Positions 7,830 to 31,751 of a stretch of DNA of 64,000 nt are shown one piece after another; the first letter of the stretch is position 1, and each line of letters starts with the position of its first letter. The stretch comes from Bacteroidales bacterium (GTDB lineage Bacteria; Bacteroidota; Bacteroidia; Bacteroidales; WCHB1-69): contig JAFYAW010000005.1 of NCBI GenBank assembly GCA_017540505.1, positions 2,197-66,196 of the forward strand, read 5' to 3'. Under the pieces are notes generated by a model, which had not been told where the DNA came from, made no database searches, and was given only the letters and a program-made list of their open reading frames with translations. The translations under genes and the position numbers were made by a program.

Positions 7830-9629
7830 ATAAAGGAACATCCTCACATCACACCTCCCCTCATCATAGTCCACCCAGCCGCAGATGAGGTGCTTGAGTT
7901 CGGGGTTCGCGGCCAAGGTCTGCACGGCTATGCGTTCCAAACGCTCGGGTGCGAAGTCGGGGAAGATGAGGAAGGAAGTCTCCCCGCCGATTTTGTGCCG
8001 GATGGCGATTTCGCCGGTGACGATGTTGGCCAACGTATAGACGAAGATGGCCGGGCTGGGGTAGTAGTTGCCCGCATCTCGGATGGTGGTCTGGTAATGG
8101 CGGTCGTCGTCCAAGGAAGACGCTTGGTTCATCAGCAGGATGCCCCAGTCTTCCTTGACCTGTTCGCGGTCGAAGTCCACGTCGCGCAGCAGGATTTCGG
8201 CGGCGAGGATGCCGGCCTTGCACAGGTTGTCCATCTTGAAGAATTTGGGGTACTGCATCCCGCTGGCGTGGTAGATGTCGGCCAGCCAGTTCTCGCATTG
8301 TACCCCGCGGGTGATGAAGGTTTCCCCGTTCAGGATGACCGCGTTATCCGTGATTTGGCACGTTGAGGCGATATGATGTTCCTGTAGAGACGCGATTAAT
8401 CGCGTCTCTACGGTTGACGGTTCGTTGGTTTTTGATTCAGACGCGATTAATCGCGTCTCTACAACGGATGATGGTTCGTTGGTGTGTGTGTGGTTTTCCA
8501 TCAGCAATGCCGCGTTGCTGCCGCCGAAGCCGGAGATGAGCTTCAGGAAGGTGTTGCCGTCGGTGGGCTGGTTTTGCAGGCTCACGTTGAGGCTTTGGAC
8601 GGTGCCGGGTTGTTCGGTGCCGAGTGTTCTGAGGATGGTGTGATGCTTGAGGGCCTGGTGCGACAGGATGGTTTCCAGCACGCCGGCAGCGCCTAAGGTG
8701 TGCCCGAAATAGCCTTTCAGACTGTTGACGGGTGTGTCTTGCAGGCCTGCGCGGTTGACGGCCACCGATTCCATGTCGTCGTTGTACAGGGTGGCGGTGC
8801 CGTGGGCGTTGATGAAGGCCAGACGGGAAAGGTCGTGCCCGTCGGTGACTTTGCGGATGGAGCGCAGAAGGCCTTCGCCCGTGCGGGAGGGCCCGGAGAT
8901 GTGGTTGGCATCGTTGTTGATGGCTCCGGCACGGAGAATCAGGGTGTTGTCGGGCAGGGCGATGTCGTCATCATCAATAGTATAGACGATGGCGGCGGCG
9001 GCTTCTCCCAAATTGAGACCGCAGCGGTTCGTGTCGAAGGGTTGGCATCGCTCTTTTGAGAGGGCCTTGAACGACTGGAAGCCGGAAACGATGAATTTGG
9101 AGAGTGTCTCGGCCCCGACGACTACAGCATATTTGTAGCCGCCGTGGCGGAGCAGGTTGGCAGCCGTTATCTGGGCGGCGCATCCGGAGATGCATGCGTT
9201 GCTGACCACCACCGGGGTGTTGGGGTTGTCAAAGAACTCAGCGATGAGTTGTGCCGAACGCCACAGATAGACGCGCTCCGGTTCGTATGGATTGTCTTCC
9301 AGCAGATCCACATTGCCCTTGGTGGTGGAGAGGATGAAGACGACATTGTCGCGGTCGGCGGCGATGTTGGCCTCTCCGATGGCCTGGCTGGCGGCGACGA
9401 TGGCGGCTTTTTCCATTCGGGTGTAACCGGCGGTGCCGCAATCCCACAGGGCGCTGAAAGCCTGGTCAAGGCGCTCCTCTTCAAAAAGGGAGAGGAAAGA
9501 TGGCTCGGGCAGTCCGAAGGCATGTTCGTAGTATTGCAGGCGGCTCTCTCCGCGAAGCACGGCCTCGAAGTTGCCGTGACTGGTCATGGCAAGGGGGGAA
9601 ATGATGCTGTCTCCAATACTGTAAATCAT
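7812..9629 (-). CDS. Beta-ketoacyl synthase fused through a palindrome-derived linker to a ~190-aa KS-partner-like domain
   Basis: KS triad SNACISGCAA, INAHGTATLYND, GYFGHTLGAAG, with the KS domain ending at GFGGSNAALLMEN. A 38-aa repeat linker follows, then a C-terminal domain (YPKFFKMDNLCKAGILAAEILL...). The ATG at 9629 (MIYSIGDS) is preferred over the GTG at 9650. Confidence 0.75.
   Translation of the reverse strand: MIYSIGDSIISPLAMTSHGNFEAVLRGESRLQYYEHAFGLPEPSFLSLFEEERLDQAFSALWDCGTAGYTRMEKAAIVAASQAIGEANIAADRDNVVFILSTTKGNVDLLEDNPYEPERVYLWRSAQLIAEFFDNPNTPVVVSNACISGCAAQITAANLLRHGGYKYAVVVGAETLSKFIVSGFQSFKALSKERCQPFDTNRCGLNLGEAAAAIVYTIDDDDIALPDNTLILRAGAINNDANHISGPSRTGEGLLRSIRKVTDGHDLSRLAFINAHGTATLYNDDMESVAVNRAGLQDTPVNSLKGYFGHTLGAAGVLETILSHQALKHHTILRTLGTEQPGTVQSLNVSLQNQPTDGNTFLKLISGFGGSNAALLMENHTHTNEPSSVVETRLIASESKTNEPSTVETRLIASLQEHHIASTCQITDNAVILNGETFITRGVQCENWLADIYHASGMQYPKFFKMDNLCKAGILAAEILLRDVDFDREQVKEDWGILLMNQASSLDDDRHYQTTIRDAGNYYPSPAIFVYTLANIVTGEIAIRHKIGGETSFLIFPDFAPERLERIAVQTLAANPELKHLICGWVDYDEGRCDVRMFLYQLVES
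8384..8492. repeat. Tandem REP-like unit (x2) containing GTAG-headed perfect palindromes, followed by (TG)5
   Basis: GTAGAGACGCGATTAATCGCGTCTCTAC at 8384-8411 is a perfect 28-bp palindrome. A second copy has a perfect 20-bp core at 8439-8458. Each copy is followed by GGTTCGTTGGT, with a period of 51-54 nt. (TG)5 lies at 8483-8492. Confidence 0.9.
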
Positions 9630-28621: not shown

Positions 28622-30073
28622 TTAAATCTTGTAGGTTTTTACCTTGCTTTTCGGCTTGCTTTCCGTGTCGTTATACGGGTTTTCACGGGTTCGGGCCGGC
28701 TGGATTTCAAGCTGGTAATCTTGGGTGGTCAATGTTTTGTAACTGCCACTATCATAGTCATAATAGGTGTATTTTACCCCCGGAATCAGATAAGTACCCT
28801 CCATCCTCGGGATGATGGTGAAACGGAAGGTCTTGGTGCCCGTCACGATGTCGCCTTTGGCGGAGATGTGGCTGATGACTTTCGGATAGGTCACATCGCA
28901 GTCGGCAGGGAAGTCGATGTTGAAATCTTCATCGCTCACATGGTGCAGGTTGCCATTTCCCGACACTGTGACGGTGAAGGTGATGGGCTCGTTGGCGTAA
29001 GCTTCCGTCTTGCTGATGTTGGAGGTGATGTTGAAATTACCGACCACCTCCGTCTTGCCGTCATTGCGTGCGCCGGGAAGGGCTTTTACCTTCACTGTCA
29101 GCTCGTTGGAGGTGAGCTGCACGGTCTGTGTCTGGTAGGTCTGGAACATGCCCCAGAAGGGATCCCGGCTGGTGGCGGGCACACGGATTGCTAAAATGAC
29201 GTTCAATTTGGGGATGACGATCTTGCCGGTTTTGGTCGGATATACGGCCGTCTGCTTGATGGTGAACACCGTGTAGGTCTTGCCGTTCAGGGTCTCGGTG
29301 CTCTTTTCCTGCCGGTTCAGCTCCAACGGATCCATCCACACGTCGTTGCTGCTGCCAAAGGAGGCCCGCTCAATGCTATACCCGCTAATATCCTCTTTCA
29401 CATACAGTTTGTGAGTGACGACCACCGCTTCTCCCTGATAGGCTTCCAAAGTGGTGGTGGTGGCTTTCAGCATCATGTCCTCCTTGCCGATTTTGGCGGG
29501 TGCCTTGGAAGATTTGTCCGGTTGGCTCTTGGGCTGTTGCTCGTTGGGGAACTGAGGTCGCTGCCGGTTTTGGAAGGGCCATTCGAAAGAGAACGAGTCC
29601 ATGTCGGGCATCTGCATGTCCGGCCACTCGAAATGGAACCAGTTGTCGGCCTGCTGCTCCTCCTGCGGCTGGCTCTTGGGCGTTTTCACCACCCGAACCT
29701 CCACCATATTGCTGCGGCAGATGCGCCCGTTGATGGATAGGCTGACCCCCGGAATCGTGAAGCTGCCCTCCTTAGGGGCGGAAAGATAGTACGTGTAGGT
29801 GTAGGTGGTCTGCTGCTGCACGCTCCCGTTGTTGATGGAAATGGACGTGCTGGAGCCGACACTCGGGCCGCTCACGAACTCGAATTTGCCGAAATCCGTG
29901 GATACAACTTCCCCTCTACCTGTGCTGGAAATGGTGTATTTGAACTGCTGCCCAACCCCTACTTCGGCTGGTGCCTTGGCAAAACAGGAATCTTCCGTCT
30001 GGGCTTGCAGCTGCATCGCCCAGCAAAAAATCATTGCAGTGAAAATCGTCTTAACCAACGTTTTTATATACAT
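28622..30073 (-). CDS. BatD-like secreted protein
   Basis: Signal peptide plus an N-terminal pattern (VGVGQQFKYTISS...FEFVSGPS...SISINNG...YTYYLSAPKEGSFTIPGVSLSINGR...SNMVEVRV) recalled from the BatD family. No other bat genes are adjacent. Confidence 0.5.
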   Translation of the reverse strand: MYIKTLVKTIFTAMIFCWAMQLQAQTEDSCFAKAPAEVGVGQQFKYTISSTGRGEVVSTDFGKFEFVSGPSVGSSTSISINNGSVQQQTTYTYTYYLSAPKEGSFTIPGVSLSINGRICRSNMVEVRVVKTPKSQPQEEQQADNWFHFEWPDMQMPDMDSFSFEWPFQNRQRPQFPNEQQPKSQPDKSSKAPAKIGKEDMMLKATTTTLEAYQGEAVVVTHKLYVKEDISGYSIERASFGSSNDVWMDPLELNRQEKSTETLNGKTYTVFTIKQTAVYPTKTGKIVIPKLNVILAIRVPATSRDPFWGMFQTYQTQTVQLTSNELTVKVKALPGARNDGKTEVVGNFNITSNISKTEAYANEPITFTVTVSGNGNLHHVSDEDFNIDFPADCDVTYPKVISHISAKGDIVTGTKTFRFTIIPRMEGTYLIPGVKYTYYDYDSGSYKTLTTQDYQLEIQPARTRENPYNDTESKPKSKVKTYKI

Positions 30074-30230
30074 ACTGATCCTCCTTTTTAATGCGTCCGT
30101 ATTAACGATTCAGCACGCGTTTTATTGCATGAAATGCGAAATGATTGTTGTTCGTATATGGCATTTGAAATTGCGAATACAATGAACGATTAATTTTAAT
30201 GATGGTTGCCCCAATTGTTTGCCCTAATCG

Positions 30231-30310
30231 TTGGGCCGCCAAATCATGACGGATTGTTGGGCCGCCAAATCATGACGGATTGTAGAGCCGCCATACTATG
30301 ACGGCTCTAC
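30231..30310 (+). repeat. REP/BIME-like array: two identical 26-nt degenerate units plus one full GTAG-headed hairpin
   Basis: TTGGGCCGCCAAATCATGACGGATTG occurs twice (30231-30282), followed by GTAGAGCCGCCATACTATGACGGCTCTAC (30282-30310; 9-bp outer stem). Confidence 0.85.
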
Positions 30311-30388
30311 GGAATCCGATTCGCGAATAATATTTTATTGTTAACAATAATTTAAATATAAAAATCGTTATAAATAAAAAACAATAAT

Positions 30389-30946
30389 ATGTCGGATGAT
30401 AAATTTCAAAACAAATATCGAATTAAATCTGTGCGCGCAGCATGGCATGATTATAATGGGGGTGGGTATTTTGTGACAATATGCACACGTAATCGTGAAC
30501 ACTATTTTGGTGAGATTTCGGGAGGTGTTATGCATTTAACCCCAATAGGCAGATTTGCAAATGATTGTTTGATGAAAATGGAAATATTACATAATGATGT
30601 GCAAATTCCGATTTGGCAAATAATGCCGGATCACATTCATGCAATTGTTATAATCGAAAACGTAGAGCCGCCATATTATGTCGGCTCTACGACAAATCAA
30701 TTGAATGTTAGAAAATCCGTTACAATTAAAAATGCATATATGCAGTATGTTGCCAATAAATGCGGACGATTATCACATGTTATATCCAGAATGAAAACGG
30801 CAATATCCAAATATGCCCATCAAAACGGCCTGCCTTTCGGTTGGCAGTCGCGGTTTTATGACCGGATAATCCGCAACGGTAAGGAAATGAATAGAATAGC
30901 CACTTACATTGAACAGAATGTGGCAAAATGGGAGAGTGAAAGGTGA
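30389..30946 (+). CDS. REP-associated tyrosine transposase (RAYT; IS200/IS605-like Y1 HUH enzyme)
   Basis: HUH motif MPDHIHAIV and a catalytic-Tyr region GWQSRFYDRIIRN; 185 aa. AT-rich. REP hairpins lie upstream and inside the ORF. Confidence 0.75.
   Translation: MSDDKFQNKYRIKSVRAAWHDYNGGGYFVTICTRNREHYFGEISGGVMHLTPIGRFANDCLMKMEILHNDVQIPIWQIMPDHIHAIVIIENVEPPYYVGSTTNQLNVRKSVTIKNAYMQYVANKCGRLSHVISRMKTAISKYAHQNGLPFGWQSRFYDRIIRNGKEMNRIATYIEQNVAKWESER
30662..30690 (+). repeat. REP hairpin inside the RAYT ORF
   Basis: GTAGAGCCGCCATATTATGTCGGCTCTAC differs at 2 positions from the upstream hairpin. It encodes VEPPYYVGST between the HUH and Tyr motifs. Confidence 0.9.
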
Positions 30947-31004: not shown

Positions 31005-31751
31005 TTACCGCAGGTTGAATCCGAACACATCGCCGGGTTTCTTCGCGCCGGGTTCCTGGCCGTACCGCAGGATGATCATTTCCCGCGTGCCACGCAGCGT
31101 GATGCGCTCGTTCTCCACCCACAGGGCCGTGCCCTCGCGCAGACCGGCCACCGTCATCTGCTGGTTGACAGCCAAGTATTCGTTCAGTCGCACTTGGCGC
31201 GTTTCCCCACCATGACGGATGGTGTCGTTGATGTCTTGCGGGTACGGGTCGATGTAGTGTGGGTTGATCTGGAACGGCACCAGATCCAGGCACTTGAAGC
31301 TCTCGGGCATCACAATGGGCATGTCGTTGGTGGTGCACAGGGTGGGGCAGGCCACGTTGCTGCCGGCACTCCATCCGATGTAGGGCGTGCCCTCCATCAC
31401 CTTGCGGCGGATGGGCTCAATCAGCTTGTTGCGGTGCATCTCGGCCACCAAGTGGAATGTGTTGCCACCGCCCACCATGATGATGTCGGCCTTGTTGATG
31501 ACATCTATGGGGTCGTCGCTGGCATGGACAGACAGGATTTTCTTCCCGAAGTTGTCGAACACCTTTTGCACACGGTCCGTGTAGGCGTCATAGCTGGCAG
31601 GATACACCTTGCCGCCCACGTCCACGCCGGCGTAGGGCAGGAAGGCGATGTTTTTCGCGGTTCCCTCTAAAAATTCTGCGATGAGCGGCTGGCACCATCC
31701 TAAATAAGGTTCTTTGTAATTGGTTGAATTGCTGATTAATAAAAGTTTCAT
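31005..31751 (-). CDS. pepE: Dipeptidase E (peptidase S51)
   Basis: MKLLLISNST..., VGGGNTF, YIGWSAGSNVACPT..TTNDMPIV and FQINPH closely parallel E. coli PepE. Confidence 0.8.
   Translation of the reverse strand: MKLLLISNSTNYKEPYLGWCQPLIAEFLEGTAKNIAFLPYAGVDVGGKVYPASYDAYTDRVQKVFDNFGKKILSVHASDDPIDVINKADIIMVGGGNTFHLVAEMHRNKLIEPIRRKVMEGTPYIGWSAGSNVACPTLCTTNDMPIVMPESFKCLDLVPFQINPHYIDPYPQDINDTIRHGGETRQVRLNEYLAVNQQMTVAGLREGTALWVENERITLRGTREMIILRYGQEPGAKKPGDVFGFNLR

Follow-up and report, generated by a model that had tools for sequence, protein, structure and literature searches.

TnpA-REP of Escherichia coli is a REP-associated tyrosine transposase (RAYT; REP, repetitive extragenic palindrome) that uses GTAG as its recognition tetranucleotide. 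This enzyme and its REPtron are reportedly the subject of the studies of Nunvar in 2010, Ton-Hoang in 2012, Messing in 2012 and Corneloup in 2021 (PMC8266576), that of Messing being associated with structure PDB 4ER8. Here we describe a relative that is encoded on a 64,000-nucleotide stretch (called the window below) of the draft genome of a Bacteroidales bacterium (GenBank assembly GCA_017540505.1, contig JAFYAW010000005.1, positions 2,197 to 66,196, forward strand). The open reading frame (ORF) in question, 30389..30946 on the + strand, encodes a protein of 185 amino acids which is very probably a Y1 (HUH) RAYT of the TnpA-REP subclass 2.4 type with a REP lying in frame inside its own gene. 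The explanation that we consider likely as a whole is that of an intact subclass 2.4 RAYT with a cognate 29-nt hairpin, the copy of this hairpin inside the gene being a passenger.

The closest described systems are the subclass 2.4 enzymes defined by Quentin, Siguier, Chandler and Fichant in 2018 (BMC Genomics 19:475, PMC6006769). These proteins are abundant in Cyanobacteria and Bacteroidetes, have a mean length of 194 amino acids and carry the signature NH[IFV]H / WQ / YIxNNP. Their REPs often possess a 'double foot', 5' GT[AG]G and 3' C[TC]AC, and REPs that lie in frame after the HuH motif and before the Y motif, in a peripheral variable region, are a hallmark of the subclass (PMC6006769). 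In view of these in-frame REPs, the statement in an initial annotation of the window that REPs flank RAYT genes and do not enter them is outdated. In-gene REPs having been known for this subclass since 2018, the locus described here is no discovery but a clear further instance; it supplies a well-documented case, from a Bacteroidales genus without cultured members, of a peculiarity already published for one RAYT subclass. The modest added value lies in a series of orthologues in which the gene is maintained and the external REP retains its stem and feet, with the internal REP drifting and its feet being lost. Such a series is a first kind of evidence on whether in-gene REPs are functional or merely tolerated.

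The hairpins and repeats at the locus are the following.

30662-30690, + strand: in-gene double-foot REP hairpin GTAGAGCCGCCATATTATGTCGGCTCTAC, 29 nt, in frame, encoding V92-T101 (VEPPYYVGST)
30282-30310, + strand: upstream double-foot REP hairpin GTAGAGCCGCCATACTATGACGGCTCTAC, with a 9-bp stem, an 11-nt loop, 5' GTAG and 3' CTAC
30230-30255 and 30256-30281, + strand: two identical 26-nt partial REP units GTTGGGCCGCCAAATCATGACGGATT (genome coordinates C4:32426 and 32452)
30335-30350, unstranded: 16-bp perfect palindrome TTATTGTTAACAATAA, 38 nt 5' of the ATG, which includes the 12-bp ATTGTTAACAAT at 30337-30348

The in-frame 29-bp hairpin with its peptide VEPPYYVGST had been read correctly from the sequence, as had the membership of the in-gene and upstream hairpins in the same REP family. 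The two differ at 2 positions, both in the loop, and a pattern search of the window matched these two hairpins alone, where 0.01 matches were expected. Together with a flanking C/G pair the in-gene hairpin has a 10-bp stem (30661-30691), and the upstream hairpin is extended by flanking CGGATT/AATCCG to 30276-30318. Folded as single-stranded DNA, the in-gene hairpin reaches -12.7 kcal/mol (z -6.2) and the upstream hairpin -15.7 kcal/mol (z -5.9). Some details of the initial annotation had to be adjusted. Position and number of differences of the upstream hairpin stand, but it ends 78 nt 5' of the ATG and not 80 bp; the two identical 26-nt degenerate units are present, but their start is 30230, one nucleotide from where it had been placed; and the 12-bp palindrome is real but extends to 16 bp. 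Each 26-nt unit is a degenerate repeat of the first 23 nt of the hairpin, followed by ATT. A REP was found only upstream of the RAYT gene at this locus, not downstream.

The identity of the enzyme is supported by both sequence and fold. The best sequence match in the PDB (phmmer) is E. coli TnpA-REP 4ER8, with an identity of ca. 20%. An AlphaFold2 model of the 185-residue protein, with a predicted local distance difference test score (pLDDT) of 78.5, also retrieved 4ER8 as first match in Foldseek (E 8e-7), followed by the ISDra2, IS608 and IS200 transposases, and the top 30 matches are Y1 transposases throughout. The RAYT-type Y1 identity proposed at first sight is thus borne out. Alignment with 4ER8 placed H82 and H84 on the HMH of that enzyme (MPDHIHAIVI vs LPEHMHCIWT), in agreement with the annotated HUH motif PDHIHAIV, and paired the W regions WQSRFYDRIIRN and WQPRFWEHAIRN. 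In the tyrosine region (ATYIEQNVAK vs VDYIYINPVK), Y173 corresponds to the catalytic Y115 and N177 to N119. The tyrosine motif first pointed out, SRFYDRIIRN, is not the catalytic one: its Y157 pairs with W99 of 4ER8, falls outside the invariant or nearly invariant columns, and the WQxRF[HY]D motif of the family has either H or Y at this position, whereas the true catalytic tyrosine is Y173 in ATYIEQN. The hairpin lies between the HUH and Tyr motifs also with this correction. Besides the two histidines, the residues W152, Q153 and Y173 are invariant across the aligned homologues; the HUH motif is carried by a predicted strand (82-89) and Y173 by a predicted helix (164-184). The catalytic motifs are encoded as follows.

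30632..30640, + strand: HUH motif codons H82-I83-H84, from the 4ER8 alignment and from invariance in 97 homologues
30842..30862, + strand: WQSRFYD motif (W152, Q153), the 'W' motif of class-2 Y1 enzymes, aligned to WQPRFWE of 4ER8
30905..30919, + strand: catalytic Tyr motif Y173-I-E-Q-N177, from the 4ER8 alignment and the family consensus YI[EQ]NN[VP]

The assignment to subclass 2.4 is a comparison of motif signatures and not a tree with the reference sequences of PMC6006769. In a tally of 120 homologues, PNH[IVL]H was present in 102 and PDHIH in 16 sequences, WQxRF[HY]D in 119/120, and YI[EQ]NN[VP] was the dominant form of the third motif. Judged from sequence, these family motifs fit subclass 2.4 better than the Bacteroidetes subclass 2.6, with its YIH[QN]NP motif and atypical structures. 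Both hairpins at the locus are of the double-foot GTAG...CTAC type, and the in-frame REP lies between H84 and Y173. As for RAYTs in general, the gene is of low copy number, vertically inherited and not like an insertion sequence (IS), and it is flanked by a GTAG-tagged REP of a kind that is also dispersed in the genome. The RAYT group 4 of Bertels et al. 2017 is said to be equivalent to subclass 2.4.

The segment of the protein that holds the in-gene hairpin is the following.

30656..30733, + strand: hypervariable loop, predicted to be disordered, codons 90-115, between the HUH strand and the next helix

In the AlphaFold2 model, the pLDDT drops below 50 for residues 93-113, which are located between the HUH strand (82-89) and a helix (116-123), and the hairpin-encoded residues 92-101 stand at the start of this low-confidence loop. 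The same codons 90-115 are the site of hairpins and half-hairpin repeats in the homologues. Three meanings had been suggested for the in-gene hairpin, namely autoregulation, self-targeting, or a permissive loop that captures hairpins. The last fits best, as the hairpin residues open the predicted disordered loop and the drift of the hairpin equals that of the rest of the loop.

This drift is visible in a series of orthologues. Three further assemblies carry an orthologue, with 96, 92 and 86% protein identity, and the gene order BatD - RAYT - peptidase S51 - NTP-transferase - MurL is the same in all four. Hence the RAYT gene has been inherited vertically, and the low GC content of the gene, 38% vs 55% in the flanks in accordance with the AT-richness noted initially, is no sign of recent transfer. 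The core of the gene shows a ratio of nonsynonymous to synonymous substitutions (dN/dS) of ca. 0.1 (0.04-0.20) in the four syntenic orthologues. In the upstream hairpin, 18/18 stem and foot positions are kept in 4/4 orthologues, and the 3 changes all fall in the loop. Divergence per site is 0.03-0.21 in the in-gene hairpin, compared to 0.06-0.18 in the rest of the loop and 0.03-0.11 in the rest of the gene. In orthologue P0001 the 3' foot of the in-gene hairpin is changed from CTAC to CTAT, and in P0003 both feet are lost (GTAG to GCAG, CTAC to CTAT). This pattern, which is suggestive only, points to conservation of the external REP site and a lack of constraint on the internal copy. The same hairpin is found at the same codon in 4/4 orthologues; with this position common to all four, repeated recent capture of hairpins in this lineage is unsupported. 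The copy number of the 26-nt array varies, from 2 units here to ca. 8, counted by eye, in the 96% identical relative in G024 (L002, G024:C61 ~1200-1392), where in addition a 3-nt insertion (TGT) lengthens the in-gene stem from 10 to 13 bp.

In the wider family, hairpins recur at the same place. A peptide survey covered the 120 best homologues, almost all of which come from Bacteroidales metagenome bins. Nearly all of them have hairpin-derived peptides directly after PNHIHxIVxI, for example VETPYYDVST, (C)RDVPWRVST, VETRRATSLQ, VETVHAPSLQ, RDAACHVST and GRDAINRVST, which are frame-1 or frame-3 readings of GTAGAGACG...CGTCTCTAC. The peptide DAINRVST, which the initial annotation had named for Bacteroidota homologues, indeed exists as the frame-3 reading of GTAGAGACGCGATTAATCGCGTCTCTAC, both in this genome and inside homologous genes. 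Tandem half-units often stand 5' of the full peptide, such as VETPS repeats before VETPYYDVST and RDAAC repeats before RDAACHVSS. A survey at the DNA level comprised 67 independent loci at which the gene could be recognised; they belong to Bacteroidota, Cyanobacteria, Chloroflexota, Ignavibacteria, Gammaproteobacteria and bacteria of the candidate phyla radiation, and a hairpin was defined as a perfect stem of at least 8 bp. Such a hairpin was present in the stretch from the HUH to the WQ codons, on average 222 nt long, in 43/67 loci, and in the 225 nt before the HUH codons in 8/67. A 12-mer is common to the in-gene hairpin and a hairpin flanking the same gene at 15 loci. At loci of the same genus (L003, L007), every RAYT paralogue comes with a variant of its own, found next to the gene as well as within it, and in two genomes (G043, G044) the dispersed REPs are mostly of the variant that belongs to the RAYT. 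The assembly's single pattern match falls within the RAYT gene coordinates in G034 and G037 and is identical in sequence to the in-gene hairpin in G057; G049 and G054 have one pattern match each, the place of which in the genome is not listed. No hairpin was present at the loop in P0030, P0098, L004, L016 and L019, and turnover of the hairpins across the wider family is likely.

REPs of the same kind are dispersed through the genome. Searches were done with a loose hairpin pattern (GTAGAG-N14-20-CTCTAC) and a strict one (GTAGAGNCG-N9-12-CGNCTCTAC), with the reversed pattern as control. The loose pattern gave a total of 43 hairpins with unrelated flanks, and the strict pattern gave 41 matches vs 0 for the reversed control. 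Most of the genome's REPs, ca. 37 besides those linked to the RAYT, are 28-nt GTAGAGACG-N10-CGTCTCTAC units with a constant outer stem and an inner stem that is variable yet complementary; among their variants are CGCCATGGCA (12 copies) and CAATGCATTG (4 copies). Hairpins of the main variants are carried by other RAYT paralogues of congeners, those of L003 and L012 matching CGCCATGGCA. The strict pattern occurs in 23/24 genomes of the same genus with 6-262 copies each; outside the genus it was restricted to genomes that encode a homologue of the protein, 8/10 vs 0/6 of those without one. The idea that the RAYT described here mobilises the main REPs of its genome found no support, since its own variant is confined to the locus and two diverged copies elsewhere. 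The REP load among congeners (G005, G019, G018 and G022 were noted) ranges from 0 to 262 copies, a more than 40-fold variation.

By analogy with E. coli TnpA-REP, the enzyme would bind GTAG-footed hairpins on single-stranded DNA and would cut and rejoin the strand beside them, with H82/H84 serving for the metal and Y173 as nucleophile. The cognate site would be the 29-nt double-foot hairpin, of which one copy stands in the divergent promoter region and one inside the gene, where it supplies ten residues in frame at the beginning of a predicted disordered surface loop. REPs would arise or insert with a preference for the vicinity of the gene that encodes the enzyme, and the survivors would be those copies that lie in frame in the sole loop with room for additional residues. 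The hairpin may then undergo slippage or repeated events and so give rise to the partial tandem units that are found upstream here and in the loops of many homologues. Enzymatic activity on these hairpins, cis-biased insertion and neutrality of the in-gene copy are what we infer for this locus, and on balance we favour a role of the in-gene hairpin as a tolerated passenger.

Several observations weigh against this account. At the level of the enzyme, the Pfam Y1_Tnp profile (PF01797) scored 21.9 bits and narrowly missed the gathering cut-off of 23; this is compensated because all 30 of the top fold matches are Y1 transposases. The sole NCBIfam match, REP_Tyr_transpos (NF047646, residues 22-178), reached 45.2 bits, below the equivalog cut-off of 80, a score consistent with a divergent subclass. 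With respect to the hairpins, the RAYT-linked 29-nt variant is represented only by the 2 copies at the locus and 2 diverged copies elsewhere (C13:429, and C14:31269 with compensatory GGGCCG/CGGCCC stems). Within the genus, hairpin count does not track the presence of a RAYT homologue: G005 with 149 hairpins and G019 with 102 have no homologue of this RAYT in their assemblies, possible explanations being the draft state of the assemblies and the presence of more than one RAYT paralogue. The contrast between the two hairpins of the orthologue series, with stem changes at 4/18 positions in the in-gene copy vs 0/18 in the upstream one, comes from four sequences and is not statistically significant, and one changed stem pair in P0003, from A-T to G-C, is compensatory. 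Furthermore, for a passenger that is neutral throughout, an occupancy of 64% for one loop across several phyla is high, and genomes with no copy besides the in-gene one fit a hairpin owned by the gene better than random sampling of a genomic pool. Finally, the unit of 28 or 29 nt is not a multiple of three, and therefore simple insertion cannot alone keep the frame.

Part of this evidence would be accommodated if the in-gene hairpin were a selected self-recognition device, by which the RAYT binds or nicks the hairpin present in its single-stranded coding DNA or in its messenger RNA, with throttled synthesis of the enzyme or cis-biased action as the effect. In favour of this idea are the occupation of one site across phyla at the surveyed loci, the frequent identity of the in-gene and flanking variants at a locus, the genomes in which the sole match is in the RAYT gene (G034, G037) or equals the in-gene sequence (G057), together with the single matches of G049 and G054, and the compensatory pair in P0003. 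Moreover, clades that share the palindrome read it as different peptides and even in different frames (VET...SLQ vs RD...VST), and therefore the recurring thing is a DNA structure and not a protein sequence. On the other hand, the in-gene hairpin drifts at the rate of the loop and sheds its GTAG/CTAC feet while the core of the protein is under purifying selection; about one third of the loci have no in-gene hairpin; and the distance from hairpin to HUH motif varies, often with decayed half-copies alongside. We regard a self-recognition device as unlikely. Still somewhat more doubtful is the broader proposal that the in-gene REP is a selected part of subclass 2.4 systems in general, a copy of the substrate placed inside sequence that selection cannot delete. 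Its role could be that of a site for self-recognition or autoregulation, or that of a 'seed' ensuring joint inheritance and transfer of enzyme and hairpin, and the proposal would explain the occupancy of the same loop in about two thirds of the loci as well as the sole-copy genomes. Were in-gene REPs to have a function, this would be one of few cases in which the DNA substrate of an enzyme is embedded in the enzyme's own coding sequence, as a regulatory or inheritance device.

A third explanation takes the upstream and in-gene hairpins as the ends of an element of the IS200/IS605 type, being direct repeats 380 nt apart on the same strand. A 409-nt segment consisting of the promoter and codons 1-101 would then be excised as a single-stranded circle, and the result would be an irreversible off-switch or a miniature mobile unit. 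The two hairpins are indeed near-identical and have the same orientation, as judged from the asymmetry of the loop (CCATAYTATGW), the in-gene copy is the sole partner of the upstream one as no REP lies downstream, and Y1 transposases such as those of IS608 and ISDra2 use two same-strand subterminal hairpins as ends (PMC6006769). However, four diverged assemblies have kept the arrangement in the same gene context and none shows a deleted form, neither the 409-nt segment nor the gene occurs a second time in the genome, and in relatives the in-gene foot decays while the gene stays, which makes this model very improbable. That the palindrome has nothing to do with REPs and arose by chance or through an assembly error, for which its small size speaks and nothing more, can safely be dismissed: it is refuted by the expectation (2 copies vs 0.01), by its presence at the same codon in four independent assemblies, by the counts in this genome (41 vs 0 in the control) and in 23/24 congeners (6-262 copies), and by homologues from many phyla with hairpins at the same place.

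The gene occurs once in the 2.5-Mb draft assembly of 51 contigs (tblastn). It is flanked at the 5' side by a divergent BatD-family gene (28622..30073, - strand) and at the 3' side by a convergent peptidase-S51 gene (31005..31751, - strand). Recent horizontal acquisition was considered as the cause of the low GC content and was rejected, in view of the same neighbours in the 4 assemblies at a synonymous divergence (dS) of up to 0.4; most homologous RAYT genes likewise have a GC content below that of their flanks. The 16-bp palindrome TTATTGTTAACAATAA is the same in 4/4 orthologues and unique in the genome. It was not found upstream of 85 other RAYT loci, an absence by which a general RAYT operator is rejected, and we consider it a candidate for an operator or a promoter element that is particular to this group of orthologues.

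Some further observations concern the dispersed REPs. Three of the 43 hairpins lie 5-6 nt 3' of tRNA genes (Asp, Gly and Ser; C5:64968, C20:28792 and C51:613), which may reflect a terminator-like role or a preferred insertion position. About 18/43 are inside stop-free frames of at least 150 amino acids; these are frames and not predicted genes, and the few that cross tRNA genes are spurious. In the window, a 28-nt REP GTAGAGACGCGATTAATCGCGTCTCTAC at 8384-8411 (C4:10580) lies inside a minus-strand ORF of 612 amino acids, where it is read as VETRLIASLQ, and a partial second copy follows ca. 45 nt downstream in the same ORF. The REP at C10:11275 is apparently translated after a lipoprotein-like Cys, in a Gln/Asn-rich linker (CNGQNNN-VETFHETSLQ-DNKQ). 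Those at C13:258 and C31:2235 occupy the equivalent place in paralogous segments (GHV-VETRLIASLQ-QGTH and GRI-VETRSIAALQ-PGVH), and a single ORF of 1272 amino acids harbors two REPs 23 nt apart (C45:191922 and 191973). At C28:65741 and C28:100383 a full hairpin is followed by tandem copies of its 3' half (ATAATATCGCGCCTCTAC twice and AATATTGCGTGCAACGTCTCTAC once, respectively). These 3'-half arrays mirror the arrays of 5' half-units upstream of the RAYT and in the loops of the homologues.

In the literature library that was searched, no later paper was found in which the function of in-gene REPs was tested, and a keyword search of Corneloup et al. 2021 (PMC8266576) for in-gene REPs gave no match. 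A search for the literal stem GTAGAGACG gave primer matches only.

Compared with known systems, the RAYT has the HUH/Y1 fold in common with the IS200/IS605 transposases of IS608 and ISDra2, which recognise subterminal hairpins on single-stranded DNA. Those, however, belong to mobile ISs that are present in multiple copies, whose left and right ends differ and whose coding sequence has no hairpin, whereas the RAYT gene occurs once, in conserved synteny, and evolves under purifying selection. Di Nocera et al. 2013 (PMC3733652) had earlier catalogued GTAG REPs inside unrelated ORFs. Like those cases and the palindromic elements (RPE) of Rickettsia, the in-gene hairpin is an in-frame palindrome in a loop or linker of a functional protein, and the GTAGAGACG hairpins in other long ORFs of this genome are a further likeness. 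The difference is that the host gene here encodes the putative mobilising enzyme itself and that the site recurs across the enzyme family. With the E. coli TnpA-REP/REPtron the system shares the fold, the catalytic residues and the combination of a single-copy gene with dispersed GTAG-tagged hairpins. In contrast, the E. coli REPs (subclass 2.2) have one GTAG foot and bulged stems, form bacterial interspersed mosaic elements (BIMEs), and flank the gene without entering it; the distance from the HUH strand to the next helix is ca. 10 residues in the E. coli enzyme and ca. 27 here.

Among the details of the locus that go beyond the description of subclass 2.4 in PMC6006769 are the variable array of 26-nt half-units upstream together with the absence of a downstream REP, the loss of feet from the in-gene hairpin of orthologues, and the fact that the cognate variant has hardly spread in its genome. 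The Y motif mostly ends in V and not in P (YIEQNV in the window), and the HUH motif of this orthologue group is DHIH. In its other features the system resembles subclass 2.4: the motifs N/DH[IVL]H, WQ and YIxNN, a protein of ca. 190 amino acids, a distribution over Bacteroidota and Cyanobacteria, and double-foot REPs that both flank the gene and lie in frame within it.

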